A DNA stretch of 30,162 nucleotides from a virus (lineage: Duplodnaviria; Heunggongvirae; Uroviricota; Caudoviricetes), in IMG/VR virus record IMGVR_UViG_2545824717_000013; one strand, given 5' to 3'. The notes below the pieces were generated by a model. That model saw only the letters and a program-made list of their open reading frames with translations. It made no database searches and was not told the DNA's origin. Of the stretch, positions 1,508-22,385 are shown one piece after another. The stretch's first letter is position 1. Every line of letters begins with the position of its first letter. The position numbers and the translations under genes were made by a program.

Positions 1508-1665
1508 CGGTAAGAACCTCTATAACCCAAAGCCTTCAGATGCTCTGTTGCGGTTACAATGCAGGCCCATCAAAAGTATCGGCAGCCAGGATGAAAGGCA
1601 CAATCATCATAGATGAGCTTGGCTTTATACATTTTCTTGAAACGGGTGAGATCCCAGATGAATAA
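1438..1665 (+). CDS. BRCT-like domain ORF (probable C-terminal part of the same gene, GTG-initiated in the ORF track)
   Basis: Sequence FTGFKKADKERLVDKANEQGLTV...IIDELGFIHFLETG resembles BRCT domains (as at the C-terminus of NAD-dependent DNA ligases); frame is open back to about 1408. Confidence 0.45.
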   Translation: MCFTGFKKADKERLVDKANEQGLTVRTSITQSLQMLCCGYNAGPSKVSAARMKGTIIIDELGFIHFLETGEIPDE

Positions 1666-1692
1666 AAACCTGCCGTAGCAGGTTCTCTTTCT
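1664..1692. terminator. Bidirectional hairpin between convergent BRCT-like ORF and ogr
   Basis: AACCTGC-cgta-GCAGGTT stem-loop flanked by A-run upstream and T-rich run downstream. Confidence 0.4.
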
Positions 1693-1907
1693 CAAAAATT
1701 CATATGCCCCTGACCACCTGGCAATGGATGTGGAGGAGCAGTAGCAATCAGTGCGGGTGTCACAATAAACCGGACCACTGTTTCATGAGTAACAAAAGTG
1801 CTCCCGCAGTTAATATTTTGGCACTGGCAGTAACGCTCTTTGGTGCTTTCAGTTACTTGAAAACTGCTCCTTGTGTGTGCCGCATGACCACACTTTGGAC
1901 AATTCAT
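1692..1907 (-). CDS. ogr: Ogr-type zinc-finger late-gene transcription activator
   Basis: MNCPKCGHAAH...ERYCQCQNINC: four-Cys zinc finger typical of P2 Ogr; start placed at internal Met of the 87-aa ORF to give about 72 aa. Confidence 0.8.
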   Translation of the reverse strand: MNCPKCGHAAHTRSSFQVTESTKERYCQCQNINCGSTFVTHETVVRFIVTPALIATAPPHPLPGGQGHMNF

Positions 1908-1978
1908 CATATCCAGATCCCTACCTTTGCTATCAGAATCATTGTAATGATACACAAAATATCAATATTGAGAACACT

Positions 1979-3079: not shown

Positions 3080-3561
3080 GACAGCAGCCCTCCCACCGTT
3101 TTACTGATATCACTTAAGGCAGACGTTGCCGTGTCCTGCAGATTATTCAGTTGCGCACTGAGATCACCGAACATATCGGACAGGGATTCATCCACTCGTT
3201 TGAGCGACAGGGTGAACTCAATCCGGCGCGGCATACCGTCGCGGAAAAACTCCGTTTTAGTCTGATTCAGTCCCTCAATCACATACATGCCGTAAATCGT
3301 GCCGCTGCCTTCAATCAGGGGCCATGCTTTCCCCTGTTCTGCCATCTGCTCCAGTGCCAGCAACGACAGCCTGCCACCTGTTATTTCCGGCATAAGAACA
3401 CCGGAAAGCGTCAGCATGTCGTTTTCCGGTCCCAGAAACTGCGTGGACGGACGTCGGTTTACCCGACTGTTTGCCGCATGTCGCCAGCTGCGTTGATACT
3501 GCAGTTCCTGATACGGAACGGTGCGCAGCATAAACACGTACAATCCCAGCACCATCATCAT
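3076..3561 (-). CDS. U: Phage tail protein gpU
   Basis: 161-aa ORF between tape measure and D, overlapping stop/start; P2 gpU-like. Confidence 0.8.
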   Translation of the reverse strand: MMMVLGLYVFMLRTVPYQELQYQRSWRHAANSRVNRRPSTQFLGPENDMLTLSGVLMPEITGGRLSLLALEQMAEQGKAWPLIEGSGTIYGMYVIEGLNQTKTEFFRDGMPRRIEFTLSLKRVDESLSDMFGDLSAQLNNLQDTATSALSDISKTVGGLLS

Positions 3562-6500
3562 GCGTCGTATCCCCCCTGATCGCTGTAGTTACTCCTGGCT
3601 TTTGCCTTCAGCCTGCGTTCACGTTCATCAAGCTGGCGTGCCACCTCCCGCGCAATATCCTGCGCACTTTGTCCTGGCTGCGTCTGAATGATGATCTGCG
3701 TCGGTGCCTCAATCCGTTGAACGAGCGGCACAGTGGCTGCGCGACTCACAATTGCTTCTCCACCTTTCGCGGGAAGTGCCAAAGGGTGCAACGGTGGAAG
3801 CTCTGCTGGCGCGGCAGCAACGCCCATCATTCCGGCAACAACGGCAGCCAGTGCAGCTGTATTTCTCCGGCTGGTCACATTTGCCGGGCCGTTAACAATT
3901 TCCGGCCCGTTTTCACCGACGATGCCAAACTGCCCGCGCGGGATATACCCGCCGCTGTCATACATCCCCGCAAAGCCATATCCCCATGATGGAAAACCAC
4001 CCGATGGCATCATCACTTTACCGTCTGCATTCACCGTCGCAGGTTTCTGACGCGTCACGCTTTCCGGCAGTTTTGCCTTTGCGGCCTCTTTACTGACAAT
4101 GCCGAGCTTCTCCAGCAACCAGGAAACGCCGGATTTCAGGGAGTCCAGCGGATGCATGACCATATTCAGCCCTTCCGCCAGTGCCTCCCCGAATCGCCGC
4201 CCCATTGCCGCTGCGCTCTGCAGTTCGGCAGAGGTCGACTTAACGGGCGTCAGCAGATCAGTAAACCAGCCCCACAGCGCCTGCACTTTGTCGCCAATCC
4301 ACTGGAACACGGGCTTAAGCGGTTCGAACGCTGCACTGATGGGACCTGCCGCCGCTTTGAATCCTTCCACCACGCCACCGAGAAATGCGGTGATGGGTTG
4401 CCAGTATTTCCAGACAACCAGCGCCACGCCCGCCAGTGCAGTAACCACAAGACCTATCGGACTGAGCAGAGCACCTAACAGACCAGATATGGCATACAGG
4501 GCAACGCGCAGCATCGCCAGTGGACCAGATGCCAGTACTCGCAGCACCGTGCCTGCGGCGGCCAGTCCACCGCGCAGTACCGCCAGAGGATTCATAAACA
4601 TCACAGCAACAGCACGTAAACCGGATAATCCAGACCGCAAAAGTGCAACCGGCGCACCTGCTACAGTTTTCAGGACATTTCCCGTCAGTGATGCCGTGCG
4701 GCGCAAAGACGACAACGGCGCAGTAAGTAAACCTGCGGCGTTGCCCGATGAAGCAAGCCCGCGTCGCAGCAGTGCCAGTGGTGCGCCAGCCAGCCAGGAC
4801 AACGCGCTGCTGGTTCGAGTTACTGCTGCCGTAACGGAAGATAACGTTTTGATACCCAACACAGAGAATCCCAGACGGATCACTGCCAGCGGCCCCAGCA
4901 CTGCAGCCAGCGCCACCGCTAAGGTGCCGAGGCCGACGGTAACCGCAGCCACAACAGCCGATGCTTTCATCAGTGTGCCTGTCAGTTCCGGGTTAGCTTC
5001 CACCCAGCGACGCAACGCCCCCGTGACGCTTTTCACCGTGTACAGAATATCCATCAGCGGCTGGCGCAGCGTTTCGCCCAGGCTGCTGAAGGTGTTCTGC
5101 GCTCCGGTTTTGACCAGCAACCACTGCGCAGAAAGTGAATCCTTGTTAATGTCGGATTCTTTCTGCATGGAGCCGAGCGCATCATTGCCCGCTGTCAGTT
5201 TTAACTGACGCTGCAGTTCCCGCAGGTTGTTTGCCAGTTTCGCCGCGTCATCGCCAAACTCTTTACCAAACAACATAGTCATGGCAGACAGGCGCTTGTC
5301 CTGCGGCAGCGCGTTTACCTTCTCCAGCACGCGCTGGATGGTTCCCATCGCATCCTTCGTCATCTGCTTTTCAATCACTTCAGGATTGAGTTTCAGCAGA
5401 TTCATCCCTTCAAAGAAACTCTTGCTTTGCATGGTGGCAATGGACAATTCACGCACCATCGCGTTTGCTGCACTGGCTGCAACCTCTGGCGCAGCGCCCA
5501 GTGTCAGGAAGGTGGAACCCAGCGCCGCCGCTTTACGATAATCCAGACGGTCAGCCACACCGCCCAGACGTTGCATCACATCAATGATGTCTGCCCCTTT
5601 CGACATGGCGTTATCATCCAGATAGTTCAGCGCATCACCGAGCTGTTCAATATTGCGGGTGGGGATTTTGTAGAGCTGGGCGATTTTCCCCAGACTTTCT
5701 GACAGTTCATCCGCTGGCAGCTCAAAGGCTGTTGCCGCCTTTGCTGCCGTACTGGCGAAGGCCAGCAGGTCACGTTTCTGATCTTCCCAGCTGTCGTCAG
5801 GGTTTGCGACGTTCATGCGCGCACCACCTTCAACCAGTGCAGCGAAGTCCACCGCACCGTTTTCCATCGGCAACTGTTCGCTGGCAGCCTTGATGGCATC
5901 CTGCATTTCATAAAAACGTGCAGTGCGGTTGCCATTATCGTCACGCAGACCATTGACCTGCTTTGCCACACCTTTCATGGCATCTTCCATGCTGGTATAG
6001 CTTTTTACTGCCGCCATCACTGGCGCACCCATTGCCAGCCCTGCAGCCGAGGTGGTGGCTCCGGCACCTGCAATACGATCACGCACCTCCAGCGAACGGG
6101 CATAACTGGCACGCGCTGCATTCATCCTGCGCTGAGCTTCCCCCAGTCGCTTCAGCCGCGCCTCCTGTTTCGAAAGTTCCTGGTTATAACGTGATGTTTC
6201 ACGGGCTAAACGGGCAGTTGCTCCCGCATCGTCTTTCGCAGAAATTCCCGCCCGGTACAGTTCAGCACGCACAAGCGCCGTCTGCTGCTGCAGCTTTTTC
6301 TGGCGTTCTTCCAGGCGCTGAACAGCCAGCCGTTGACGGCCCAGAGCAACAACCTGACGTTGCGAAGGCGGCCCCATCGCTCCCAGTTCCTGACTGAGCA
6401 AATTTGCACGCTGGCGGGCATAGTTCAGCCTGTCGCCTAATTTCTGATTTTCTGCCTGCAGCTTTCGGAAGCTGTCCAGACTGCTCCCGGCCTGATCAAG

Positions 6501-6635
6501 CTGCTTTATTGCATCGCGGGATTTTTTGACAGCAGCAGCCAGTTCTCTTGAACTGGCCTGCGCAGATCGAAATGGGCGGGTGAGCTTGTCAACCGCATTA
6601 AGAATGACCTGCAGACGCAGGTTGTTATCACTCAT
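3558..6635 (-). CDS. T: Tail tape measure protein gpT
   Basis: 1025-aa ORF, N-terminal coiled-coil-rich and central Ala/Gly/Leu-rich repeats; position after E/E'. Confidence 0.9.
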   Translation of the reverse strand: MSDNNLRLQVILNAVDKLTRPFRSAQASSRELAAAVKKSRDAIKQLDQAGSSLDSFRKLQAENQKLGDRLNYARQRANLLSQELGAMGPPSQRQVVALGRQRLAVQRLEERQKKLQQQTALVRAELYRAGISAKDDAGATARLARETSRYNQELSKQEARLKRLGEAQRRMNAARASYARSLEVRDRIAGAGATTSAAGLAMGAPVMAAVKSYTSMEDAMKGVAKQVNGLRDDNGNRTARFYEMQDAIKAASEQLPMENGAVDFAALVEGGARMNVANPDDSWEDQKRDLLAFASTAAKAATAFELPADELSESLGKIAQLYKIPTRNIEQLGDALNYLDDNAMSKGADIIDVMQRLGGVADRLDYRKAAALGSTFLTLGAAPEVAASAANAMVRELSIATMQSKSFFEGMNLLKLNPEVIEKQMTKDAMGTIQRVLEKVNALPQDKRLSAMTMLFGKEFGDDAAKLANNLRELQRQLKLTAGNDALGSMQKESDINKDSLSAQWLLVKTGAQNTFSSLGETLRQPLMDILYTVKSVTGALRRWVEANPELTGTLMKASAVVAAVTVGLGTLAVALAAVLGPLAVIRLGFSVLGIKTLSSVTAAVTRTSSALSWLAGAPLALLRRGLASSGNAAGLLTAPLSSLRRTASLTGNVLKTVAGAPVALLRSGLSGLRAVAVMFMNPLAVLRGGLAAAGTVLRVLASGPLAMLRVALYAISGLLGALLSPIGLVVTALAGVALVVWKYWQPITAFLGGVVEGFKAAAGPISAAFEPLKPVFQWIGDKVQALWGWFTDLLTPVKSTSAELQSAAAMGRRFGEALAEGLNMVMHPLDSLKSGVSWLLEKLGIVSKEAAKAKLPESVTRQKPATVNADGKVMMPSGGFPSWGYGFAGMYDSGGYIPRGQFGIVGENGPEIVNGPANVTSRRNTAALAAVVAGMMGVAAAPAELPPLHPLALPAKGGEAIVSRAATVPLVQRIEAPTQIIIQTQPGQSAQDIAREVARQLDERERRLKAKARSNYSDQGGYDA

Positions 6636-6761
6636 CGTTGGCCCCGCTTCTCTGAATCGCTTTATACCGCCATTCCAGCACTTCGGTCAGCGGCATAACG
6701 TCAGTAACGGATGGCGGCCAGTGAAAAATGGTGGCGATATCTGCCACCAGATCGTCAACCG

Positions 6762-7064
6762 TCAGGCTGTCGGTAAACCGGCAAGCACCGACTTCTTCAA
6801 CAAAAAAGTGACAACCTCAACCGACATGGCAGTGAGATCTGCCGGGTCCATCTCTGCAATTTCCTGTGCAGTCAGTGCCGGACTGGAGATGCGGGGGATC
6901 ACGGTCATCATCGCGTTTACATCCATATCCATAATGGCCTGCAGGCGTGTACCGCGCAGCGCACCGGACTGCGGTTTACGCAGCACAATTTCGGTGATTT
7001 CTGTTTTACCGCGCTTGATGGGGGTATCCAGTTGAATGGTCTTTTCAGTCTGCTTATCGCTCAT
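6762..7064 (-). CDS. E: Tail assembly chaperone gpE (E' extension by -1 frameshift to about 6633)
   Basis: 100-aa ORF between FII and T; contains T6G slippery run near its 3' end. Confidence 0.75.
   Translation of the reverse strand: MSDKQTEKTIQLDTPIKRGKTEITEIVLRKPQSGALRGTRLQAIMDMDVNAMMTVIPRISSPALTAQEIAEMDPADLTAMSVEVVTFLLKKSVLAGLPTA
6801..6808 (-). other. Slippery heptamer TTTTTTG for programmed -1 frameshift (E to E+E')
   Basis: Minus-strand CTTTTTTG within codons V-T-F-L-L-K-K of gpE; alternative frame appears to end in a TGA overlapping the ATG of T. Confidence 0.5.
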
Positions 7065-7118
7065 TTTGCTGTCCTGTCAATTGGGTTCTGGCGCGGTATC
7101 CCGCGCCGTTCAGATATA

Positions 7119-7634
7119 TCAGAGGCCGAGGGCGTTGCGGTGCGCTTCCATCAGGTCCACACCGTCCACAATTTCCACCATGTTGATAAGGTCCACTTCA
7201 TAGAGCACCTCACCATTGATGGTCAGCTTCGCGTAGCTGTTGGTACTGGTCACTTTGGTGGTGTTGCTTTCGCCCGTCTTCCACTCGCCGGAATCCACTT
7301 CTTTGTGACGTCCACGCACGACAAGCTCCACGGCCTGCACTTCCCCGGTATCGTCACGCTGAATAGAGCCGGTAAAGCGCAGCTGGATGCCATCCACCGT
7401 GGCTTTACCCATCTGTTTAAACAGCAGCAATTCAGTACCACCAATGGAAAATTCTGTATCCAGCGCACTGTCATCAAGCCCCAGATCCACATCCACCGCA
7501 CCCGGCATTCCGCCGCCGCGATACTTCTCATATTTGCGGGTAAATTTCGGCAGCGTCAGCGACTCAACGATCCCCTGCCAGTTGTTCCCGTCGTTAAACA
7601 GGTTCAGGTGTTTTAATTTGCGTGGTAAAGCCAT
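7119..7634 (-). CDS. FII: Tail tube protein gpFII
   Basis: 171-aa ORF directly downstream of sheath gene; P2 FII-like. Confidence 0.88.
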   Translation of the reverse strand: MALPRKLKHLNLFNDGNNWQGIVESLTLPKFTRKYEKYRGGGMPGAVDVDLGLDDSALDTEFSIGGTELLLFKQMGKATVDGIQLRFTGSIQRDDTGEVQAVELVVRGRHKEVDSGEWKTGESNTTKVTSTNSYAKLTINGEVLYEVDLINMVEIVDGVDLMEAHRNALGL

Positions 7635-7643
7635 GTTGTCCCC

Positions 7644-8816
7644 TTACGCGCTGACCTGGCTGGCGAAATTCACCAGGTACTGATCGGTGATGCGCTGACG
7701 CAGCATCAGGTTTTCAAGTGGCGGCACTGGCGTGTAGTCGTAGTCGATGGTGAGTTTTCCGGCTTTCAGCGTGTCTTTGTCGTTCACCGACTCATCCAGC
7801 CAGCAATCACCACCAATGAGATAGCCCTGACTGACCAGGCTGCGCATTTTGGCGCGGATACCTTCGATAATGTCGCGGGCCAGCGACGGGTTAAGCGGTT
7901 TATCCACCGCCCACATGTGTGCTTCTGCCATCGTGTCCATCAGCACCTGCGCCGTGCGGGTGTAGTTTTCGAAGGCAAAGAGCGGGTCATCACTCAGGCA
8001 GCGGGAACCCCAGAAGCGGAAACCGTCTTTACGCACAAGCGTGGTGACGTCGTTCTGGTTCAGCAGACCTGCATCGGTTGCCGGGTCCTGCAGATCCCAG
8101 AACACATCTGCAGAAATTCCGGTGACACCGTTCACGCCCACGTTGGACAGGCTTTTGTGCCATCCGGTCTGCTCGTCAATTTTGGCGCGCAGACCAAGCG
8201 CACGGGCGGTGGCATATGCCGTTGCTTCGGCTTTCAGCACCGTGTCCCAGCCAGTAAAGTCAGGCCAGATCAGCATCCCTTCGCGCTGGCTGAAGTTTTC
8301 GCGGTAAGTGATCGCCTCCTGCACTGTCTTGCAGCCATACGCTGACAGGTAAGCAAATCCACGCAGGCTTTGCGCCACGCTCAGCAACTCAGTAGCTACC
8401 GCCTTGGTGTCGTGGCCTGGCACGCCGAGAATGCGCGGTTTAACGCCGAGCTGTGACTGGGCAGATAACAGGGCTTTCATACCTGTTTTTTTACCTTCAG
8501 CAGTCACTGCGCCGATGATATTGGTCGTGGTTTCGTCTTCCGTTTCACCCTGCGGCACACGCACAACAATGGTCACGGGTTTTGCCTGGTCAGCGATGGC
8601 ATCCAGCGAACGGGCCAGAGTACCTGACTCACCCGCTTTACCGCTGGCAGTCAGCACATCAGTGATCAGCACGGGTTTATTAAGAGGAAACATTTTTGCA
8701 TCGGCATCATCGCCCGTGCAGACCATACCCACGATGGCGGTGCTCACCGTGGTAATAGATCGGGTGCCTTCGTTGACTTCAACAACGCGCACCCCGTGGT
8801 GGTAATCCTGAGCCAT
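7644..8816 (-). CDS. FI: Tail sheath protein gpFI
   Basis: 390-aa ORF, P2 FI-like, first gene of FETUD operon. Confidence 0.9.
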
Positions 8817-8892
8817 AGTGGCGAACCTCCTGATTGGATTAGGCTTCGCCCTATGTTGAAGTGATTGTGCCTGACAAACAGCTAAGCGCAGT

Positions 8893-8910
8893 TGTGTCGT
8901 TATTCACACA
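8893..8910. promoter_or_regulatory. TGT-N12-ACA element, candidate Ogr-dependent late promoter upstream of FI
   Basis: TGTgtcgttattcacACA located about 80-95 bp upstream of the FI start; matches the dyad described for P2 late promoters. Confidence 0.4.
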
Positions 8911-8958
8911 AAATAACGGTATTTGTCTGCTTGCAGGGATAATCAACATAATGCTGAT

Positions 8959-9531
8959 TCAGGGGGATTCATTGATCTTATTTGCCGGAAATTTTCTATA
9001 AATGGTAGAAACGCCTACATCAAAAATCAGTGCAATACGCTGTCTTGATTCTCCGGCCTCGAGTAAACGCCCAATCTGTGCCCACTGTTCGGTGGTCAAC
9101 TTAGGACGGCGTCCACCTACTCTGCCTTTGGCACGAGCTGCAGCCAGCCCTGCCCTGGTACGTTCAACTATCAGTTCGCGTTCCATTTCAGCCAGGGCAC
9201 CCATGACATGAAAAAAGAAACGGCCCATTGGGGTACTGGTATCAATACTGTCAGTCAGGCTTCTGAAATTCACACCACGCTGGCGCAACTCTTCTATCAG
9301 CGTAACAAGATGCCGCATACTGCGCCCCAACCTGTCCAGCTTCCAGACAACCAGCGTGTCTCCTGCCGATAGTGTCCTGAGTAGTTTTTTCAGCCCCGGT
9401 CTGTCGGACTTAGTGCCACTGATTTTGTCCTCAAAAATCCGCTCACATCCCGCGCAGTTCAGTGCATTACGTTGCAAATCGGTGTTCTGGTCATTTGTTG
9501 ACACGCGTACATAGCCAATAAGCATGATCAT
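8959..9531 (-). CDS. Hin/Gin/Pin-family serine DNA invertase
   Basis: 190 aa; MLIGYVRVSTNDQNTDLQRNAL... catalytic Ser motif and C-terminal HTH; closely resembles e14 Pin from memory. Confidence 0.9.
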   Translation of the reverse strand: MIMLIGYVRVSTNDQNTDLQRNALNCAGCERIFEDKISGTKSDRPGLKKLLRTLSAGDTLVVWKLDRLGRSMRHLVTLIEELRQRGVNFRSLTDSIDTSTPMGRFFFHVMGALAEMERELIVERTRAGLAAARAKGRVGGRRPKLTTEQWAQIGRLLEAGESRQRIALIFDVGVSTIYRKFPANKINESP

Positions 9532-9552
9532 CCCCCTGAATAAAAACCGGAG

Positions 9553-10047
9553 ATGATGCCAGTTAGCTGTTACCTCTGCATTTTCTTAAACGTTGGTTTG
9601 GGAGAAGCGGCAAAACGGAATGTGGGCAACGGGGAAAACCAAATCCCTGATATGTCTTTCTGGACGGTTACTGGTGGCAATGGAAATTTTGTGATTCGTC
9701 AACCTGACGGGCTAATCACTCAGATGGTTACTGTAAGTATAAGCGGTCCAGTGGCGATGAATGGAATGACTGATAATGCTTATGCCATTACAGGTTCTAA
9801 TAAGTCTTATATTGCCACAGCCACATTGCCCTTTGTATTTCCTAATAAGGTGCTGGGCGTTATCCCTCTGGTATCAACAACAGCTTATGGCGGTGTATCC
9901 AGTAATATTACAGGTTCATACGCGACGGCGGTTTGTTCTTTTGCCGCTGTCCGGGGGAATAATACGATTGTATTCAAAGTCGACAAACCACTGAATGCAG
10001 CCTTTCCTTCAGATACCAGCGTCTCAGCGTTAATCATTGGACGGTAA
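9553..10047 (+). CDS. Alternative tail-fibre C-terminal variable segment (Sv'-like), promoterless in this orientation
   Basis: 164-aa ORF starting just outside the gix-like site and followed by a tfa gene; mirror arrangement of the minus-strand pair. Confidence 0.55.
   Translation: MMPVSCYLCIFLNVGLGEAAKRNVGNGENQIPDMSFWTVTGGNGNFVIRQPDGLITQMVTVSISGPVAMNGMTDNAYAITGSNKSYIATATLPFVFPNKVLGVIPLVSTTAYGGVSSNITGSYATAVCSFAAVRGNNTIVFKVDKPLNAAFPSDTSVSALIIGR
9581..9606. other. gix/hix-like 26-bp invertase crossover site (left end of invertible segment)
   Basis: TTTTCTTAAACG-TT-GGTTTGGGAGAA: imperfect dyad resembling Gin/Hin/Cin recombination sites. Confidence 0.5.
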
Positions 10048-10049
10048 GA

Positions 10050-10493
10050 ATGAACTCAGTATTCTTTTCACCCGGAAGTAAAAGTTTTTATCTACAAGAA
10101 TTGTTTCCAGAATATGAGGATGCGGGAACGCTTCCAGATGATGTTATTGAAATTACCCGAGAAACATATGAGCAATTTCTTGGGCTGCATCCAGAAGGGA
10201 AAGAAATTGGCGCTGACAGTTCAGGACGGCCAATATGGATTAATTCCCCACCGCCTTCAAAAGAGGATGAGGTGTTGATGGCTGAAATGAAAAAAATATC
10301 TTTGGTTTCAGAAGCCAATACCTACATCAACACCCATCAGTGGCCTGGCAAAGCTGCTATTGGTCGTCTGAAAGGTAACGAGCTGGAGCAATATAATTTA
10401 TGGCTGGATTATCTGGACGCACTGGAACTGGTTGATACCTCCAGTGCTCCAGATATTGAATGGCCTACGCCTCCGGCAGTTCAGGCCAGATGA
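10050..10493 (+). CDS. Tail fibre assembly protein (alternative copy)
   Basis: 147 aa; conserved C-terminal ...TSSAPDIEWPTPP motif shared with the convergent tfa (TSTAPNVIWPELP). Confidence 0.75.
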   Translation: MNSVFFSPGSKSFYLQELFPEYEDAGTLPDDVIEITRETYEQFLGLHPEGKEIGADSSGRPIWINSPPPSKEDEVLMAEMKKISLVSEANTYINTHQWPGKAAIGRLKGNELEQYNLWLDYLDALELVDTSSAPDIEWPTPPAVQAR

Positions 10494-11067
10494 CATTCGG
10501 CGCGGTGCTGGTATCTATTGCCGTCACCGCGTCAATGTAATCCAGCACAGCGTTAAGCCGGGTTGTTTCTGCCTGCGTCAGTTTCCGTCCGGCCTGTAAT
10601 TTCAGCTGAATCAGACTAATGGAAGCCATTGCAGCATCAATCAGTGACTGGCGCTGTGCTTCTGCCGCGTCTACTGCGGCGCTATGCTGTGCCTCAGTAT
10701 CCGTCACCCATTTCTCACCATCCCATTTATCGTATGGCGTTAATGGGGCGATAGTGGTTGTATTATTAGGGTAATCACCCGGAGCTGTGATTTCTTTTGA
10801 TTCTCCTGTTTCGGTGCTAAAGACGATTTCACCGCGATGGTCTGGCACATATTCCCATGAGTTAAAATCTGCAGAACGGCAGATTGCATAACCAGCTTTG
10901 TATGCGCCTGGAGCATCTAAACAGGAACATGCCGGAATGCCGACACCAACGGCAAGATATTCAGTTGATATGGAAATATATTCCCGTGTTTCACCATCAT
11001 AATTATAGACAGTAATATCCCCCGCCTTCGTGGCAATAAACTCGCTATTTAATACAGCGCTATCCAT
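10465..11067 (-). CDS. Tail fibre assembly protein
   Basis: 200 aa, immediately downstream of tail-fibre C-terminal segment; 3' ends of the two tfa genes overlap convergently. Confidence 0.8.
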   Translation of the reverse strand: MDSAVLNSEFIATKAGDITVYNYDGETREYISISTEYLAVGVGIPACSCLDAPGAYKAGYAICRSADFNSWEYVPDHRGEIVFSTETGESKEITAPGDYPNNTTTIAPLTPYDKWDGEKWVTDTEAQHSAAVDAAEAQRQSLIDAAMASISLIQLKLQAGRKLTQAETTRLNAVLDYIDAVTAIDTSTAPNVIWPELPEA

Positions 11068-11537
11068 TATGCAGCCCTCACAATGTAGTTAAATGCGATG
11101 TTGCGTGGACGGACACCGAAATAAGAAGTAACACCATTCATTGTCAAATTTCCAGAGCCAAAAGCGGTAAAACCAGAACCAGCATTAACTGCCGAATCCG
11201 CGTTTCTGACAAAGTTTTTGGGAGGTGAACCGGAGACACCAGCCGAAATATCATCAGCGTTACCGCCATTGCCGTGGTGGTTAGTTATCTTTGTTTCCGC
11301 CTGCGCCGTCAACAAACCTCGTCCAGAGTCAACCCCGCGCCCGTCATCCCAGCCGCGAATAAACTCACCACGTAAATCAGGCAATTTATTTGTCGGATAA
11401 GCCTTTGCCAGTTCCGGGTATTCTTCAGCAGAAAAAGCTGCACCATTGCATTTCAGCCAGCCTGTTGGCGGAGTGGCTGAAGGCCACGGAACAGGGACAC
11501 CAACAGGTAATGCAGAGCCTTCTCCCAAAGCCGTCAT
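11067..11537 (-). pseudogene. Tail fibre (gpH-like) C-terminal receptor-binding segment lacking the constant N-terminal part
   Basis: 156 aa with tail-collar-like motif PVGVPVPWPSATPPTGWLKCNGAAFSAEEYPELAKAYP; only about 21 bp separate its first codon from the terminase gene on the other strand. Confidence 0.75.
11519..11533. other. Partial gix-like half-site (right end of invertible segment) abutting a deletion junction
   Basis: CTTCTCCCAAAG is the inverted counterpart of the outer half of the left site; the expected second half is not recognisable. Confidence 0.35.
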
Positions 11538-11558
11538 TCAAGGCTGTAGGTTTGTGCC

Positions 11559-13325
11559 ATGAACACCACACTGACACCCGCAGATCTCGATCCCCGTCGG
11601 CAGGCCATGCTGCTGTACTTTCAGGGATACCGCGTAGCCCGCATTGCTGAAATGCTGGGCGAGAAAGTTGCAACCGTTCACAGCTGGAAAAAACGCGACA
11701 AGTGGGGTGACTATGGGCCGCTGGATCAGATGCAGCTCACCACCGCCGCACGCTACTGCCAGCTCATTATGAAGGAGCACAAAGAAGGGAAAGATTTCAA
11801 AGAAATTGACCTGCTGGCGCGCCAGTCGGAGCGCCACGCGCGCATCGGCAAGTTTAACAATGGCGGTAACGAAGCCGACTTAAACCCTAACGTCGCCAAC
11901 CGCAACAAAGGCCCGCGCCGTCAGCCGGAAAAGAATGTTTTCACCGATGAGCAGATTGAGAAGCTGGAAGAAATCTTCCATTCCTCCATGTTCAACTACC
12001 AGCGCCACTGGTGGGAAGCCGGAAAAACCAACCGCATCCGCAACCTGCTGAAGTCTCGCCAGATCGGCGCGACCTTCTATTTTGCGCGTGAAGCCCTGAT
12101 TGACGCCCTGCTTACCGGACGTAACCAGATTTTCCTTTCTGCCAGTAAGGCTCAGGCCCACGTCTTTAAACAATACATCATCGACTTCGCCAAAGAAGTC
12201 GAGGTGGAGCTAAAAGGCGATCCGATGGTGCTTCCTAACGGAGCCACGCTTTACTTCCTCGGCACCAATGCCCGCACGGCCCAGAGTTATCACGGCAACC
12301 TTTATCTGGATGAATATTTCTGGATACCGAAATTCCAGGAGCTGCGCAAAGTGGCTTCCGGGATGGCTATTCACAAGAAATGGCGACAAACCTATTTTTC
12401 CACGCCATCCAGCCTGACCCACAGTGCTTATCCGTTCTGGTCCGGTGCGCTGTTCAACCGTGGACGCAACAAAGCTGACAAGGTGGACATCGATCTGTCC
12501 CACAGCAATCTGGCCCCCGGCCTGCTGTGCGCAGACGGGCAATACCGCCAGATAGTCACCGTGGAAGATGCGGTGCGCGGCGGCTGTAACCTGTTCGACC
12601 TCGACCAGCTGCGCATGGAGTACAGCCCGGACGAATACCAGAACCTGCTGATGTGCGAGTTTGTGGACGATCTCGCGTCCGTGTTCCCGCTCAGCGAACT
12701 GCAGGCGTGCATGGTGGACAGTTGGGAAGTCTGGACCGACTTTCATGCACTGGCCCTGCGCCCGTTTGGCTGGCGAGAGGTGTGGATCGGTTATGACCCG
12801 GCAAAAGGTACGCAGAACGGTGACAGTGCCGGGTGCGTGGTGGTGGCTCCGCCAGCCGTGCCGGGCGGTAAGTTCCGTATTCTTGAGCGTCACCAGTGGC
12901 GCGGGATGGACTTCCGCGCCCAGGCGGACGCCATCAAAAAACTGACCGAACAGTACAACGTGACATACATCGGCATCGACTCGACAGGTGTCGGTCACGG
13001 GGTTTATGAGAACGTGAAAGCGTTCTTTCCTGCCGTCCGGGAGTTTGTCTACAACCCCAACGTTAAAAACGCCCTGGTACTCAAGGCCTACGACATTATT
13101 AGCCACCGCCGCCTGGAGTTTGACGCCGGGCACACCGACATAGCGCAGTCCTTTATGGCAATCCGTCGCGCCACCACTGCCAGCGGCAACCGCCCGACCT
13201 ATGAAGCCAGCCGCAGCGAAGAAGCCAGCCACGCCGATCTGGCCTGGGCAACAATGCACGCACTGTTTAATGAACCGCTGCAGGGCGAGTCCGCCAATAC
13301 CAGCAATATTGTGGAGATTTTTTGA
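11559..13325 (+). CDS. P: Terminase large (ATPase) subunit gpP
   Basis: 588 aa, P2 gpP-like, followed by portal gene with overlapping stop/start. Confidence 0.9.
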   Translation: MNTTLTPADLDPRRQAMLLYFQGYRVARIAEMLGEKVATVHSWKKRDKWGDYGPLDQMQLTTAARYCQLIMKEHKEGKDFKEIDLLARQSERHARIGKFNNGGNEADLNPNVANRNKGPRRQPEKNVFTDEQIEKLEEIFHSSMFNYQRHWWEAGKTNRIRNLLKSRQIGATFYFAREALIDALLTGRNQIFLSASKAQAHVFKQYIIDFAKEVEVELKGDPMVLPNGATLYFLGTNARTAQSYHGNLYLDEYFWIPKFQELRKVASGMAIHKKWRQTYFSTPSSLTHSAYPFWSGALFNRGRNKADKVDIDLSHSNLAPGLLCADGQYRQIVTVEDAVRGGCNLFDLDQLRMEYSPDEYQNLLMCEFVDDLASVFPLSELQACMVDSWEVWTDFHALALRPFGWREVWIGYDPAKGTQNGDSAGCVVVAPPAVPGGKFRILERHQWRGMDFRAQADAIKKLTEQYNVTYIGIDSTGVGHGVYENVKAFFPAVREFVYNPNVKNALVLKAYDIISHRRLEFDAGHTDIAQSFMAIRRATTASGNRPTYEASRSEEASHADLAWATMHALFNEPLQGESANTSNIVEIF

Positions 13326-14359
13326 TGGGAAAGAGTAAGAAAAACCGCGCTGCGTCGACGAAACAGATCCAGCATAAAAGCCAGACTTCAGCCGAAGCAT
13401 TCAGCTTCGGTGATCCCGTTCCTGTTCTGGACCGCCGCGAACTGCTGGACTATGTGGAATGCGTACAGATGGATCGTTGGTATGAGCCGCCTGTGAGTTT
13501 CGACGGACTGGCGCGAACCTTCCGCGCCGCCGTGCATCACAGCTCACCGATTGCAGTGAAGTGCAACATTCTGACCAGCACCTACATCCCTCACCCGCTG
13601 CTCAGCCAGCAGGCTTTTTCGCGTTTTGTACAGGACTATCTGGTTTTTGGTAACGCCTACCTGGAGAAACGCACGAACCGCTTCGGTGAAGTTATCGCCC
13701 TTGAGCCTGCACTGGCAAAATACACCCGACGCGGGTTAGACCTGGATACCTACTGGTTTGTGCAATACGGTATGACTACGCAGTTGTATCAGTTCACGAA
13801 AGGCAACATTTTTCATCTGATGGAACCGGACATCAACCAGGAGATCTACGGTCTGCCCGGTTATCTTTCTGCCATTCCGTCAGCTCTGCTCAACGAGTCC
13901 GCCACGCTGTTCCGCCGCAAGTATTACATTAACGGCAGTCATGCAGGCTTCATCATGTACATGACCGATGCTGCGCAGAACCAGGAGGATGTGAACAACC
14001 TCCGCAATGCGATGAAAAGCGCCAAAGGTCCTGGTAACTTCCGTAACCTGTTTATGTACTCGCCTAACGGTAAAAAGGACGGGCTTCAGATTATCCCGTT
14101 GTCAGAAGTGGCGGCGAAGGATGAGTTCCTGAATATCAAGAACGTGAGCCGGGACGACATGATGGCGGCGCATCGTGTGCCGCCACAAATGATGGGGATA
14201 ATGCCTAATAATGTCGGGGGGGTTGGGGATGTGGAGAAAGCCAGTCGCGTATTTGTACGTAATGAATTAACGCCCTTGCAAAAAAGGCTACAAGAGCTGA
14301 ACGACTGGCTGGGCGAAGAAGTGATTAAATTTACGCCCTATATTCTTTCAGAAGAATAA
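13322..14359 (+). CDS. Q: Portal (capsid) protein gpQ
   Basis: 345 aa, P2 gpQ-like, transcribed toward the cos region. Confidence 0.9.
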   Translation: MMGKSKKNRAASTKQIQHKSQTSAEAFSFGDPVPVLDRRELLDYVECVQMDRWYEPPVSFDGLARTFRAAVHHSSPIAVKCNILTSTYIPHPLLSQQAFSRFVQDYLVFGNAYLEKRTNRFGEVIALEPALAKYTRRGLDLDTYWFVQYGMTTQLYQFTKGNIFHLMEPDINQEIYGLPGYLSAIPSALLNESATLFRRKYYINGSHAGFIMYMTDAAQNQEDVNNLRNAMKSAKGPGNFRNLFMYSPNGKKDGLQIIPLSEVAAKDEFLNIKNVSRDDMMAAHRVPPQMMGIMPNNVGGVGDVEKASRVFVRNELTPLQKRLQELNDWLGEEVIKFTPYILSEE

Positions 14360-14367: not shown

Positions 14368-15066
14368 TTATTTGTTTCTTCTTTGTTCACGCCTTGTCTT
14401 GGCTTCGATAAGGCGTTGAGGTTCAGTGTAAAGCCGTTCTAAAAAAAGATAGGTAAAATCTTCAAGATCCTCAGCAGCAGCTTTATCCAAAATACCTTCA
14501 TGCGCTCCATCATTTCCGTCATCTTTAACGCATTCAGCTAGTTCCCTTAAAGCTTCAGGCAGTAGATGATTATCAAATAACCACTCCATTCTTAACCCTA
14601 GGCTTCTCCTTATTTTTTGCGCAGGCCCTTGCTCCCCATCAGGAAGAAGTCCTTTTGTGGCATAATCAAGGCAAAGCCTAAACATGGTTGCTGCTGCATT
14701 ATAACAACCTATAGCCAAACATTTCGCCCCTTCCTCATATGCACTATTGATATGCTCAGGTAAGAACTCTGGTGGCTCCTCTACTGCTAAGTCTGCTGGT
14801 GATATAGGCCTAACAACCTCTGCAACTTCCTTTAAGCCGAATATTCCACTTTCCCAATTATAGCCATCTAAAGTTTTATTTTTCGTTAAAGGTCTGCAAA
14901 GAAACATTGTCGTTTTATGACACTCTCGGCAAACACAATAGACCTCGTACTCGTATGTTTTACCCCCGCCCAATGCATTGTAAACCCTAGTGCAATTCAG
15001 CCCATTAACATCAAACGCTATTTTTTGTGATCCACATCGTGGACAGTCATCCACTAACATAACCAT
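14368..15066 (-). CDS. Zinc-ribbon plus DUF4145/HEPN-like domain protein (candidate abortive-infection/defence gene)
   Basis: 232 aa in AT-rich insert; N-terminal CPRCG...CRECH Cys pairs; C-terminal AATMFRLCLDYATKGLL...GNDGAHEG resembles DUF4145 as I recall it. Confidence 0.55.
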   Translation of the reverse strand: MVMLVDDCPRCGSQKIAFDVNGLNCTRVYNALGGGKTYEYEVYCVCRECHKTTMFLCRPLTKNKTLDGYNWESGIFGLKEVAEVVRPISPADLAVEEPPEFLPEHINSAYEEGAKCLAIGCYNAAATMFRLCLDYATKGLLPDGEQGPAQKIRRSLGLRMEWLFDNHLLPEALRELAECVKDDGNDGAHEGILDKAAAEDLEDFTYLFLERLYTEPQRLIEAKTRREQRRNK

Positions 15067-16432: not shown

Positions 16433-17683
16433 TCAGTTCAACGCCGTTTGCCGACCCTTTACGGATGCGGATACCGTCGCATTTGTCCAGGTTGGGTTTG
16501 GTCTGCCGTTATTGAGCGTGGAATGGAAACGTGACGGACAGGTAATGGTGTAGAAAACGGCGCAATCACCACGCATTTCCGCGATAAGCTCCAGACCTTT
16601 AACACAGGCCATCATCTCATTGCGGCGGTGCGCCGGGTTGCTGCTGCTGGCGTTTACCACGTCTTCCATATCCAGCGTGTCGCCCTCTTCGTTCACCAGT
16701 TCATGAGAACGGAAAAACTCCAGTGACTTGCGGCGCTGCTCACGTTTATGCATCACGGCTTCATAGCTGACATAGGGAGATGCTTTTTTGCTGACCAGGC
16801 AGACAGCACGCAACTGCTCTTCCCGCCATTCGCAACGCATCTTCCATAATTTCCGATACCACCAGTCGGCACACAACATACGCGCCAGCGAACCCGGAAT
16901 GAGTTCATAGGGCACGGGTTTACGGCGGTTTCTTTTCCGACGGAGTTGCTCAAACGCAGGCGGAATAACATCCAGACGCAGGGTTTCCGCTGCCACCTTT
17001 TCCCATGTTTTGCGGATTTCTTCTGGCTTAACGTCATCGGTGGCATACAAATCACCACAAGCGGCATCAAGGCACATGCTCATATGCGCAGCGACAAGGG
17101 TAGACAGGCGCTTCACCTGATCCTGACTCATTTCAGGCAGGATAAGCAGGCCGTCCAGCCCTTCATGGCTTGCCATAAAACGAAAAGATGCAGATAGCTG
17201 GCTGTCGCGTACATGCTCCAGTCGTTCCAGACATGGCTTAATCGTCTCACGTAAATAGCGGGAATAAGCCTTTGGCCTGCCTAGGCTGCTAAAGTATTCA
17301 ATACGTTGCATCAGCGGCTTGCTGATATGGGAAGGCTGGGCGTTGACGTCCGCCAGAATGACCATATCCGGATTAAAACGCTGCTGCTCATGCGCCAGCT
17401 TTGCCCGGCTAATGAGCTTATCCTGCTCCATTTCGCGCTGGACAGGATCACGTGATTCATTAAAAAAATAACGCTCCCAGACCTGATCACTCAGTGCCTC
17501 GCGGCGCAGTTGTTCCTGCTCGTTATCGGCAGCGTACAGAGTGATCAGGTTTGAAAGCGCAGAAACCGGCGCAACTTCCGCCGGGTCCAGATAAGGGTTA
17601 ATGGCCTTTTTCGGGCTGTTCCATGAGAACGCTGCGGCAGCCTCGTTAAAGCCGCAGCAGTTGTTCATATCGGCATGACTCAT
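16433..17683 (-). pseudogene. A: Replication initiation endonuclease gpA, N-terminal fragment (3'-truncated)
   Basis: 416 aa ending shortly after a rolling-circle motif-1-like FYTITCP; P2 gpA is about 760 aa and the catalytic Tyr region is not present downstream. Confidence 0.7.
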
Positions 17684-18537
17684 GCACGTACTCCGTACAC
17701 GGCTGAACTATCCACGCCACGCGAAGGATCAAATCCCACCCAGCAGAGCGGCCCGGAAACAGCGATGATTTCTGTTGCAGATTTACTCTCACCAGCTGCC
17801 ACACCGATGCTGCGTTTTGCCTTGATGTAGTGGTGAGTAAAATTGCGATACAGCGAACGGATCAGGGATGTGTCACTGTTAGAAACAATGACCGGATGTC
17901 CTTCTGATGACCGATGTTCAAGAACGGATGCCAGGTGATACTGGTCATCTTCAGTGAAACCATCAGTGTGATAGCCGGAAAACGTACCGTCATACGGCGG
18001 ATCGCAATACACCACATCCCCCACCTGCAGCATCGCCAGCGTTTCATCAAAGCTTGCGCAGATAAACGTTGCCCGCTGGGCTTTCTCTGCAAATGCGCGA
18101 ATTTCTTTTTCAGGGAAATACGGATTTTTATAATTACCGTACGGAATGTTGAAATGCCCGCTCTTGTTATAGCGACATAACCCACGGTAACCATGACGAT
18201 TGAGATACAGGAAATATACCGCTTTCATGAAATCAGTAATTTCAGTGGAGTAATTAAACTCCTGCCTTATGTTGTAATAAGCCACATCCCTGTTTGCTTC
18301 CTCAAATAAAGCTCTGGCACGAGATATAAACGCTTCGCAATCAGCGACAATCTTTTTATAGAGGTTGATTAAATCAGGATTAATATCCGCAACAAGATAG
18401 CTGGGGTAATCCGTCTCCATCATCACAGCACAGGAACCCGCGAAAGGTTCAACCAGTCGCGGGCCAGCAGGAAGATGTTTTTTCAGTTCGGACATAATGG
18501 CGGTTTTATTTCCCGCCCATTTCAGGATGGTGCTCAT
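17680..18537 (-). CDS. Dam-family DNA N6-adenine methyltransferase
   Basis: DPPY motif ([10 protein letters not shown]) and N-terminal FAGSCAV SAM-binding motif; start placed at the ATG overlapping the upstream stop (ATGA). Confidence 0.85.
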
Positions 18538-18761
18538 ACAACACCTCCGTTGTAATGTTTGCCTTTCAGCTCTGCGATTTCCTGACAGGTAATGCAAAGC
18601 TGCACTCCAGGAATGGCGCGGCGTCGTGCTGGCGGAATTGGCGCTTCACATTCAATACAAAGCACACGAGACACGCCCGGTGTTTTGGCACGGGCAGCAC
18701 GGATATAGCGCTGGCGTCCTTCTTCAACGCGCTGCTGTACGAGATCCATTGCATCTGCCAT
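18534..18761 (-). CDS. TraR/DksA-type C4 zinc-finger protein
   Basis: 75 aa with CIECEAPIPPARRRAIPGVQLCITCQ motif. Confidence 0.7.
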   Translation of the reverse strand: MADAMDLVQQRVEEGRQRYIRAARAKTPGVSRVLCIECEAPIPPARRRAIPGVQLCITCQEIAELKGKHYNGGVV

Positions 18762-19000
18762 TAGTGGATCTCCTGCGCTTCGTTCTGGATTGCTTCAGCA
18801 GTCACACGCAGCAGTTCTGCCGCTTCGACGTGGTTTAGCTGGCGGGATGTGATATGACACGCCAGGCTATCAAGGCGAGCTGCCATTGCTTCAGCCCTTG
18901 CCCGGCGTTCTTCCAGACGAGCCTCTGTCAGTAAAATATTAAGCCCTGCATCATCCGGTCCGGTTTTAGTCGTGAGGGTTTCAATATTACGCATAATCAA
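18761..19000 (-). CDS. Hypothetical phage early protein
   Basis: 79-aa ORF translationally coupled to the neighbouring genes in the early operon. Confidence 0.45.
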   Translation of the reverse strand: MIMRNIETLTTKTGPDDAGLNILLTEARLEERRARAEAMAARLDSLACHITSRQLNHVEAAELLRVTAEAIQNEAQEIH

Positions 19001-19061
19001 TTCTCCTGAATTTAGATAAAGGGATGCCCGGCGGGTTTACGCCATTAATTTCATTAGTTGC

Positions 19062-19403
19062 TTAATTCGGCATGGTTAGCCGTCTGGGAAATAAGCTCAC
19101 CACTGCACGAAAATGATTCATTGCTTTAATCAACTCCCGCTTTTCGTCAGTGGTCAGCTCATTAATGCTGATGCTATGACGTTCAGCTGGAATTTTTGCC
19201 ATAAAGAATATGGCAGCCAGTGCTCGTTTATTTTGTTCGTTATTGATATCCCGTGGATCACGCATATCTTTAATAAACCGCTCAAGCTCTGACTCAATAT
19301 TCAGGCCAAATACTTTCGCCCTTAACTCCGCAATGTGATTAAGTCCATTCAGGCGTTCACCGGGGCTTAATGGAACAGTCGCCGCAGCGCCATTAATTGC
19401 CAT
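19062..19403 (-). CDS. Hypothetical phage early protein
   Basis: 113-aa ORF in the early operon. Confidence 0.45.
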   Translation of the reverse strand: MAINGAAATVPLSPGERLNGLNHIAELRAKVFGLNIESELERFIKDMRDPRDINNEQNKRALAAIFFMAKIPAERHSISINELTTDEKRELIKAMNHFRAVVSLFPRRLTMPN

Positions 19404-19425
19404 AATTCATATCCCCAAAACGCAA

Positions 19426-19650
19426 CTATCGTTCTTTGTTCTTACGGTAACATTCAAGAGGAGATACATTTTTTCGTATCGTCTCTTTAACCTGCTCTCC
19501 CCGTAAAAACGTCCCATCCCTTAGCGTGAAAAAGTAACTGCCATCGCCCGACAACGACGGATAACAACAGAGCAAATCATCTTCAGGTACTGAATAACTC
19601 TCCCCTCTGTAACGAAACTGATAAACCACTTCACTTTCCGCTGCATACAT
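19426..19650 (-). CDS. Hypothetical phage early protein
   Basis: 74-aa ORF; overlaps the 3' part of the upstream ORF in another frame. Confidence 0.35.
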   Translation of the reverse strand: MYAAESEVVYQFRYRGESYSVPEDDLLCCYPSLSGDGSYFFTLRDGTFLRGEQVKETIRKNVSPLECYRKNKER

Positions 19651-19847
19651 TTTGACTTTCTCCGTTTCCTCGTGGTCAATTCAGACAGCAATTCATCTTG
19701 TGAATGACATGGATGCCAGCGTTTACCATCCTCACCCATGATCCAGCCGTGACCGTAGTGCATTGCCGGGCTTTGTTTTACCAGCAGCGATGCAAATGAT
19801 GGTTCTTTCGTCAGCATAAGCACCTCACAGCAAACCGAATGAAGCAC
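19521..19847 (-). CDS. Hypothetical early protein (position of 186 fil); 3' end uncertain
   Basis: 108-aa ORF directly after cII; N-terminal half looks protein-like, C-terminal half overlaps the next ORF. Confidence 0.3.
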   Translation of the reverse strand: MLHSVCCEVLMLTKEPSFASLLVKQSPAMHYGHGWIMGEDGKRWHPCHSQDELLSELTTRKRRKSKCMQRKVKWFISFVTEGRVIQYLKMICSVVIRRCRAMAVTFSR

Positions 19848-20334
19848 CGAGGCCAGTCACGGTATCAACTGCACTCACCATCGCAGGATTAGCCTGTAAA
19901 CGGGCCTGCAATGAAACAGCCGCCAGCGCCATCAGTCGTGTTACAGAGTTAATGCTGCTGATAGCATCACGACGACCGGCACTAGTTTTTACATCACCAG
20001 ATACCGCACCTGCAGCAACACGCCCGATCTCTGCGGTTGCACTCATGACGTAATGTGGCAGTTTCTCTTTTGCCACCTCATTAATTGGTACGCATGGCAG
20101 GCAGTGAATCTGTGCCAGAAAGCCATCTACCAGCGTTGAATCTTCAGTCAGATCGGTGAGCAACCAGATTTCTGGCGCTGTGAGCTGATGCGGTTGATCT
20201 GGGTTGAGTTTGTTTCGCAGTGTCTGAACATTCATTCCTGCACGTTCTGCCAGCTTCGCCATGTTGTGACGTAGTGCAAAAGCTCTACAGGCTTCATCAA
20301 AATTCGGATGTTTGGAAATCTTGTAATCAAACAT
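19825..20334 (-). CDS. cII: CII-like lysogeny establishment regulator
   Basis: 169 aa (same length as 186 CII), HTH-like region; second gene of the rightward operon after apl. Confidence 0.7.
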   Translation of the reverse strand: MFDYKISKHPNFDEACRAFALRHNMAKLAERAGMNVQTLRNKLNPDQPHQLTAPEIWLLTDLTEDSTLVDGFLAQIHCLPCVPINEVAKEKLPHYVMSATAEIGRVAAGAVSGDVKTSAGRRDAISSINSVTRLMALAAVSLQARLQANPAMVSAVDTVTGLGASFGLL

Positions 20335-20366
20335 GCTGCCCCCTTAGAAAGTTCCCATAATTGAAC

Positions 20367-20609
20367 TTACTTACCAACAATGACGCGGAAGTTGGAATGA
20401 CCGAGGGATTCACGAACCTGGTCGGTTTTGTACATCAGGTAACGAAGGCTTACGCGACCTTTGTTTTTTTCTTTCTTGACCATGTACTTGGCGAGCTGGC
20501 CATGGTGAATTTTCTGGTAAACAGAGCCACGGGAGATACCTTCCCATTCAGCGAACTCTGCAGGCGTAGCCATCTCTTTTGGTACACGAATTGAAATATC
20601 AGTGCTCAT
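20367..20609 (-). CDS. Apl/Cox-like excisionase and lytic-operon first gene
   Basis: 80-aa HTH protein divergent from cI across a 120-bp switch region. Confidence 0.65.
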   Translation of the reverse strand: MSTDISIRVPKEMATPAEFAEWEGISRGSVYQKIHHGQLAKYMVKKEKNKGRVSLRYLMYKTDQVRESLGHSNFRVIVGK

Positions 20610-20665
20610 AGTGCAGTATCTCTCAGTTAAGGTTTGGTTTATGTCGTTTTATCTTGTTTTATGCA

Positions 20666-20708
20666 ATCCAATATTTGAACAATCGAGATACTACGATCCA
20701 ATATTTGA
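20666..20708. promoter_or_regulatory. Switch-region operator repeats: two copies of ATCCAATATTTGA 30 bp apart
   Basis: Direct 13-bp repeats at about 20666..20678 and 20696..20708 in the cI/apl intergenic region, each with an AT-rich near-palindromic core. Confidence 0.4.
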
Positions 20709-20728
20709 TACGTCAATAGGATTAAAAA

Positions 20729-21361
20729 ATGATACAGGTGAAGGCTGGCGAGAATACAGGGGGTAGAGAGGCTATCCATAGGTTGATGGCTGCCTATGAT
20801 TTCAAGTCCCGACAGCAGCTATGCGATCACTTAGGCGCATCTAAAAGCACTATGGCAAACAGATACTTAAGGGATAGCTTCCCTGCAGAATGGGTGATCC
20901 AATGCGCTCTTGAAACAGGCGTTTCATTACTCTGGCTAACTACAGGACAAGGCGAACCAGGAACAAAAATTGATGATAGAAAAAGTATCAATTTCGTGAA
21001 CTCCAGCAAAGTAAAACCACTTTCTGAGCTTGTATCGCCAGAGATCGATAAGGCTAGCCTTATCGGAGGTTCGTTGATTGAAGCCGGGAAGGCCATCATT
21101 GATAGCAGCCTGCTTCCCCCTGACTCAAGCGAGCTACTTCTCGTAAATACCAATGGCGATTCATATTTAATTGACCGTAACCAGACACTACCAGTGAATG
21201 GGATGTGGTTGGTCGATATCGACGGGATAAAAAGCATTGTTAAGCTAACTCGCCTTCCCGGAAACAGATTAGTTGTACATCAAGATGATTCTTCGTTTGA
21301 GTGCAGCCTGGATGATATCGAGGTTGTTGGCCGCGCATTGAAAATCATTAAGAGCCTTTGA
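20729..21361 (+). CDS. cI: CI-type immunity repressor (186-like)
   Basis: 210 aa, N-terminal HTH (...QLCDHLGASKSTMANRYLRD...ALETGVSLLWLTTGQGEP) and C-terminal domain; immediately upstream of int. Confidence 0.8.
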   Translation: MIQVKAGENTGGREAIHRLMAAYDFKSRQQLCDHLGASKSTMANRYLRDSFPAEWVIQCALETGVSLLWLTTGQGEPGTKIDDRKSINFVNSSKVKPLSELVSPEIDKASLIGGSLIEAGKAIIDSSLLPPDSSELLLVNTNGDSYLIDRNQTLPVNGMWLVDIDGIKSIVKLTRLPGNRLVVHQDDSSFECSLDDIEVVGRALKIIKSL

Positions 21362-21362
21362 T

Positions 21363-22376: not shown

Positions 22377-22385
22377 TGTACAGAC

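Follow-up and report, generated by a model that had tools for sequence, protein, structure and literature searches.

The 186/P2-like prophage in the stretch of DNA analysed here (the window, 30,162 nucleotides) carries a 10.1-kb internal deletion that has brought the large terminase gene P next to the variable end of the tail-fibre gene H. The limits of the deletion were mapped to the base, at an AAA trinucleotide common to both parental sequences, and the joint is private to this record. On balance, the loss is probably a case of ordinary prophage decay, by illegitimate joining at the AAA that did not involve the invertase.

The prophage and its invertible tail-fibre segment

The last 52 nt of ssrA (1013–1064) recur as a direct repeat at 24334–24385. 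Because the 3' end of ssrA is duplicated in this way, the element between about 1065 and 24385 is taken to be integrated, with the tmRNA gene and the 52-nt attachment repeat marking its boundaries. The gene order of the prophage in the window is the reverse of that of P2. Two deletions aside, Pfam assignments and collinearity with phage Cartapus indicate a P2-type late gene order, a 186-type early region with CI, CII, Fil, Dam and gpA, and an integrase. The left part of the window (1–9615, including smpB) shares 99.4% identity with the E. coli 500465-1 record (blastn), which likewise adjoins smpB/ssrA; this identity places the host in E. coli or a very close relative. The coordinates of the features are summarized in Table 1.

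The invertase shares 187 of its 188 residues with the invertases of Cartapus and of the prophage in E. coli LFB1-1-1R. The tail-fibre region is organized like the Cin, Gin, Hin and Pin systems, with a 26-bp site of 12-2-12 form, an adjacent serine invertase, and a doubled variable end with an assembly gene. The invertible segment, including the orphan variable end Sv, spans 9553–11537, and an 11-nt inverted repeat pairs the left crossover site with positions 11519–11529. The right crossover site of intact relatives has the sequence TTCTCCCAAACC AA GGTATGCGAGAA, with an outer half of GGTATG(C/T)GAGAA. Of this site, the window lacks the entire outer half, the central AA and bp 11–12 of the inner half, so that the segment is flanked by one complete site on the left and a 10-bp remnant on the right. 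A presumably functional serine invertase and true crossover sites (the intact gixL and the gixR remnant) are present in cis. Since the single complete site has no partner, the inversion switch would be locked and is probably dead.

Table 1. Features of the window, with positions, strand and basis of assignment
Feature	Position	Strand	Basis
smpB	1–483		
ssrA (tmRNA) gene; 3' end (1013–1064) is the left attachment repeat	698–1060	+	ARAGORN
D, U, T, E and FII, all intact	left of FI	-	Pfam; collinear with relatives
FI, tail sheath; last late gene kept on the tail side	7644–8816	-	Pfam; collinear with relatives
Gin/Cin-type serine DNA invertase, intact, 188 aa; homologous start at 9525	8959–9531	-	PF00239 and PF02796
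Left 26-bp crossover site, intact, TTTTCTTAAACG TT GGTTTGGGAGAA	9581–9606		Sequence; same site in LFB1-1-1R
Body of the invertible segment	9553–11067		99.4% identical to LFB1-1-1R
Alternative variable tail-fibre end, Sv'	9553–10047	+	PF21882, E = 0.00032, below the curated cut-off
Tail-fibre assembly gene	10050–10493	+	PF02413
Tail-fibre assembly gene	10465–11067	-	PF02413
Orphan Sv, variable C-terminal part of H, tail-collar domain	11067–11537	-	PF07484
Right-site remnant TTCTCCCAAA, first 10 of 12 bp of the inner half	11520–11529		Alignment with 500465-1, Kp4845-2 and LFB1-1-1R
Deletion joint, AAA microhomology common to both parents	11527–11529		blastn limits; three-way alignment with LFB1-1-1R and KCJ3K291
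Remainder of the O–P intergenic DNA right of the joint, with the P ribosome-binding region	11530–11558	+	Alignment
P, large terminase, intact	11559–13325	+	PF03237, PF17289, PF06056; 95–97% identity with Cartapus and Kp4845-2
Q, portal, intact	13322–14359	+	Pfam; 95–97% identity with Cartapus and Kp4845-2
DUF4145 gene, truncated gpA, Dam, DUF5347, Fil and CII	between Q and CI		Pfam
Second, independent deletion joint, TA microhomology	16472–16473		blastn against Cartapus
CI repressor	20729–21361		
Integrase	21363–22376		
dCTP-deaminase-type gene, just inside the right attachment repeat	22386–24284		

Limits and content of the deletions

The window was compared by blastn with four intact relatives: Cartapus (NC_070909), 500465-1 (NC_049342), Kp4845-2 and the E. 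coli LFB1-1-1R prophage (NZ_CM141448). On the H side the homology stops at 11529, on the P side it starts at 11527, and the same limits were obtained with all three phage records. LFB1-1-1R, Cartapus and 500465-1 are intact Peduoviridae with the same gene order, 94–99% DNA identity on both sides and the same invertase; intact relatives keep the 9.5–10.1 kb that separate P from the H crossover site, whereas the window lacks this DNA. The best parent for the H side is LFB1-1-1R, which is intact and shares with the window the invertible segment, its orientation and the 26-bp sites (96% identity over 1780–11529; 99.4% over the segment, 9540–11529). The parent for the P side is E. coli KCJ3K291, with 100% identity including the G at 11533.

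Relative to LFB1-1-1R, positions 17991–28128 (10,138 bp) are missing, and no part of this DNA was found elsewhere in the window by blastn. The deleted genes comprise the first 1,052 bp of H, followed by I, J, W, V and one ORF; S-like and R-like genes, LysC, LysB, one ORF, lysozyme and holin; and X, L, M, N and O, together with 110 of the 142 bp of the O–P spacer. With them have gone all genes for the capsid and its scaffold, the small terminase, head and tail completion, lysis and the baseplate. None of the intact relatives has P adjacent to the tail fibre. In the 2,468 E. coli complete genomes that gave matches, Sv and P never come within about 1.1 kb of each other, and the joint is not spanned by any phage record. 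Judged from these comparisons, the adjacency is a large internal deletion and not an alternative gene order, in agreement with the first-pass annotation, whose list of lost genes, from the P/O promoter region to the constant part of H, was also correct.

At the joint, the window reads GCC TTCTCCCAAA GCCGTCATTCAAGGCTG, and the P-side parent reads GGCGGGGAAAGCCGTCATTCAAGGCTG. Up to and including CCCAAA the window agrees with the H parent, and from AAAGCC onwards with the P parent, which confines the crossover to the three shared bases. Each flank is collinear with its parent right up to the joint, which is sharp and consists of a 3-bp overlap without filler bases. The AAA corresponds to base pairs 8–10 of the 12-bp inner half of the right site, 2–5 bp short of the central AA, which would fall at 11532–11533. 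At 11530 the window has the G of the P parent, where every crossover site seen here has C; the crossover therefore lies to the left of the core. Were a close intact relative to carry a right site reading TTCTCCCAAAGC CG, the joint would instead be at the core. The alignment to intact relatives thus places one breakpoint inside a 26-bp invertase crossover site, as had been suspected, and the outer half that had seemed unrecognisable is in fact deleted. The breakpoint had been placed directly after the conserved half, but it falls within that half, after bp 10 of 12.

The ATG of P (11559) is separated by 21 bp from the start of the minus-strand tail-collar ORF (11537), which matches the short distance reported in the first-pass annotation. 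The ORF was there said to begin with the first codon of the variable segment; the position of its ATG is correct, but the codon is not a true start. The 156-residue translation aligns with residues of about 352–504 of the LFB1-1-1R H protein, and its ATG (11535–11537) derives from DNA upstream of P and is in frame only by chance; the genuine Sv segment itself lacks a start codon.

A second deletion was found in the early region. Compared with Cartapus, 1,664 bp are missing at 16472/3, comprising the 3' half of gene A, a small ORF and part of a dinI-like gene. The gpA ORF encodes 416 residues instead of 804 and covers positions 1–216 of the 321 positions of the Pfam GPA model, whereas gene A is full length in the intact relatives (IS-disrupted in 500465-1). 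No crossover (gix) site is present at this joint.

Neither this joint nor the P/Sv joint occurs in 5,426 complete E. coli genomes; the P/Sv joint is also absent from phage, GTDB and metagenome collections, with no match to the exact joint among GTDB species genomes. A scan with 18-mers recovered three true sites, all in the normal or flipped arrangement, together with 22 hits to unrelated genomes, which appear to be fortuitous. When the metagenomes were searched for any base other than C after TTCTCCCAAA, only one contig of 1.65x coverage, with an extra A that is probably a sequencing error, was obtained. The genes retained in the prophage are full length, apart from the gpA gene truncated at the second joint. 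Because of this, and because the joints are absent from the collections searched, both deletions look recent and private to this lineage.

Origin of the terminase to tail-fibre joint

A single step would suffice to produce the joint. Illegitimate joining of the RecA-independent type at the 3-bp AAA would delete about 10.1 kb and fuse the right crossover site, broken off after bp 10 of its inner half, to the DNA that begins 32 bp upstream of P; that one end falls inside the crossover site would then be due to chance or to some local influence of the site. The pathway may have been replication template switching or microhomology-mediated end joining. Several observations favour illegitimate joining: both parental sequences are known, the joint is sharp and collinear, the P side is not site-like, and the second joint of the same prophage is of the same type, with a 2-bp microhomology and no gix site. 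Apart from a short microhomology the parental sites are unrelated, and their ends carry neither a long repeat nor an IS; no repeat longer than AAA was found between them in the alignment of both parents.

Other observations weigh against it. A random end is expected within 5 bp of either core in only ~0.1% of cases (2 ends × 2 sites × about 10 bp / 33 kb), so coincidence is unlikely unless the site or a bound enzyme contributed. The position of the end is not explained by a hairpin, since neither parental end forms a significant hairpin or cruciform in DNA folds (z = -1.6 and -0.35). Additionally, an overlap of at least 3 bp is expected in about 5% of random blunt joins, and the microhomology is therefore weak evidence.

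The same closeness to the core lends some weight to an explanation in which the invertase acted as initiator and not as the agent of strand exchange, which we consider possible but less likely. An abortive or mis-synapsed cut at the central AA of the right site would have been left unsealed; the host would have trimmed the ends, by 2–5 nt on the segment side and by about 10.1 kb on the H side, and sealed them at the AAA by ligase-dependent alternative end joining. Serine invertases cut with a 2-bp stagger at the central dinucleotide (PMC4817059; PMC4134206, Table 3) and pass through double-strand-break intermediates to which the protein is covalently attached (PMC4817059). The retained end is on the inner side of the site, 2–5 bp from the cleavage position, and the intact enzyme, nearly identical to that of an isolated phage, could have been present at the time of the deletion, although the joint itself does not bear its signature. 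The use of microhomology and one-sided long resection in alternative end joining in E. coli would also suit such an origin, in which a double-strand break would have been the initiating lesion; the process is reportedly rare in this species (Chayot et al. 2010). Moreover, cleavage normally occurs only in a two-site synapse that holds all four ends, and the left site is intact and still attached to the segment. The resection would have been extremely asymmetric (2–5 bp against 10 kb), and no Chi site that could stop degradation was found in the prophage part of LFB1-1-1R or in the window; Chi-limited resection by RecBCD was ruled out on this ground. No second example was found in the E. coli, GTDB and metagenome searches, and the other deletion of the same prophage needed no invertase.

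The end 2–5 bp from the cleavage point nevertheless makes one ask whether illegitimate deletions are occasionally initiated by DNA invertases. If a reading based on an abortive cut were true and held more widely, prophages would carry, in their tail-fibre invertases, an unnoticed cause of double-strand breaks that hastens their decay.

The first-pass annotation had attributed the deletion to aberrant recombination in which the invertase paired the right crossover site with a pseudo-site close to the P promoter, in preference to random decay. Canonical recombination of this kind, with exchange at the central dinucleotide, is not supported and appears very unlikely; it is largely refuted already by the position of the joint. 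Phage invertases act on sites of 12-2-12 form and exchange strands at the two central bases (PMC4134206, Table 3). Such an exchange would have kept TTCTCCCAAACC plus the core, with a predicted intermediate of TTCTCCCAAACC-NN-AGGCGGGGAAAGCC, and would require a partner with a matching core. Neither is seen: the joint is 2–5 bp off the core, with base 11530 as in the P parent, and the cores differ, with AA in gixR against CG in the in-register P-side sequence or GC in the nearest look-alike. The mismatch should block ligation, since a single core change in Hin stops ligation in the recombinant orientation (PMC4817059).

The P side also lacks a partner resembling a crossover site. In a ranking of 33,965 positions with a position weight matrix (PWM) built from 15 natural half-sites, the in-register sequence GGCGGGGAAAGC CG TCATTCAAGGCT ranks 11,319 and the nearest look-alike, ACCACACAAACC GC AGGCGGGGAAAG at 15 bp from the joint, ranks 358. 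A site as good as this look-alike lies within 15 bp of about one third of random positions. By a simple count, the look-alike matches the palindromic consensus at 14 of 24 positions (tied at about rank 4), which speaks for the exchange; given the matrix ranks, the pseudo-site idea was abandoned. A variant in which exchange at the look-alike was followed by later small changes, such as a 15-bp AAA–AAA slippage, adds an ad hoc event, is unparsimonious and is blocked by the same core mismatch. Furthermore, wild-type invertases disfavour deletion between sites in cis, through the Fis/enhancer topological filter.

In favour of an exchange, one partner is a true crossover site and Cin is known to use quasi-sites (Iida and Hiestand-Nauer 1987, as cited in PMC4134206). 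In the Cin events (Iida and Hiestand-Nauer 1986, 1987; Sandmeier 1994), as far as they are cited in PMC4134206, exchange takes place at the core and matching cores are preferred; in contrast, the joint in the window lies away from the centre, the two cores are unlike and the partner does not resemble a site. Together with the second joint, which formed without a crossover site, these results favour ordinary decay over exchange by the invertase.

An assembly error or a true alternative gene order is the least probable explanation: the joint occurs in no other record, but a 3-bp overlap offers an assembler nothing to join on, the flanks are collinear with the relatives for kilobases, a prophage without capsid, baseplate and lysis genes would not be viable, and the second private deletion suits decay.

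State of the prophage

With illegitimate joining as the preferred origin of the joint, the deletion is a new instance of a well-known decay process, mapped to the base but of little importance alone. From its gene content, the prophage is predicted to be unable to form particles. It is also probably unable to replicate, because gpA is truncated. The joint keeps 32 bp of O–P intergenic DNA, counting the AAA (11527–11558), and the late-promoter region upstream is deleted; P and Q would thus retain the ribosome-binding region of P and be promoterless. No sigma-70-like promoter was found upstream of P, and no new promoter was found at the joint. The 156-residue tail-collar ORF and the promoterless P and Q are best regarded as remnants and not as functional genes.

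In these respects, the prophage resembles the defective or cryptic prophages that arise by illegitimate deletion in Enterobacteriaceae, which share its sharp joints with 2–3 bp of microhomology, its loss of morphogenesis and replication functions and its retention of cargo. The only oddity compared with these is that one end lies inside an invertase site. The dCTP-deaminase defence gene next to the right attachment repeat is cargo that the decaying prophage has kept.

The joint in gene A and cos

In addition to the deletion at the tail-fibre gene, the prophage carries a joint at window positions 16472–16473, marked by TA microhomology, where 1,664 bp are missing relative to the intact Escherichia phage Cartapus (NC_070909, 30459–32122). 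This deletion cuts replication gene A to 416 aa (gpA ORF, 16433–17683, minus strand) and takes out a small ORF together with some of a dinI-like gene. It is the second private deletion in this prophage, and its joint was not found among 5,426 E. coli genomes. The genome ends (cos) of Cartapus correspond to window 15227/15228; therefore, cos is kept in the defective prophage. The DUF4145 gene adjoins the portal gene, as it also does in Cartapus.

Dyads between O and P

Features of the intergenic region between late genes O and P were read at 28096–28160 in the intact E. coli LFB1-1-1R prophage, at 1468–1532 in E. coli KCJ3K291, the P-side parent of the tail-fibre joint, and at 11530–11576 in the window. 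The region contains a TGT-N12-ACA dyad, TGTACCGACAACCACACA, which is lost from the window, a further dyad, TGTGCCATGAACACCACA, which spans the P start codon and is kept, and an 8-bp inverted repeat, CACAAACC-N32-GGTTTGTG. The two dyads resemble the sites at which activators of the Ogr/Delta type act on P2 late promoters.

Probable cargo and second island at ssrA

The dCTP deaminase-type gene is flanked by the prophage integrase on one side and the right ssrA repeat on the other. Cartapus has a RES-domain gene at this position, which appears to be a hot spot for variable cargo or defence genes. In window 24334–30162, the duplicated ssrA 3′ end is followed by another island, in tandem at ssrA.

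DUF4145, deaminase and island genes in the window
Feature	Coordinates	Strand	Location	PADLOC match
DUF4145 protein	14368–15066	minus		PD-T7-4-like, weak (E = 1.2e-6)
632-aa protein with cytidine/dCMP deaminase domain	22386–24284	minus		dCTPase (dCTP deaminase) defence model (E = 2.5e-140)
P4-type tyrosine integrase	24467–25777		second island	
Large serine recombinase	26060–27616		second island	
ParB/RepB-like protein	27606–28502		second island	
ParB/RepB-like protein	28499–29395		second island	

Records of two relatives

The public record of phage 500465-1 (NC_049342.1; regions 1–4000 and 29400–39179) is a predicted prophage. About 9 kb of it, from smpB to ffh, are host chromosome, and its gpA is disrupted by IS100; its annotation should not be taken for a phage genome. 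In a human gut metagenome contig (L030, 2046–2070; coverage 1.65x), otherwise an intact relative, the right crossover site at tail-fibre gene H reads CCCAAAACC, with one extra A that is probably a homopolymer sequencing error, rather than a variant site.
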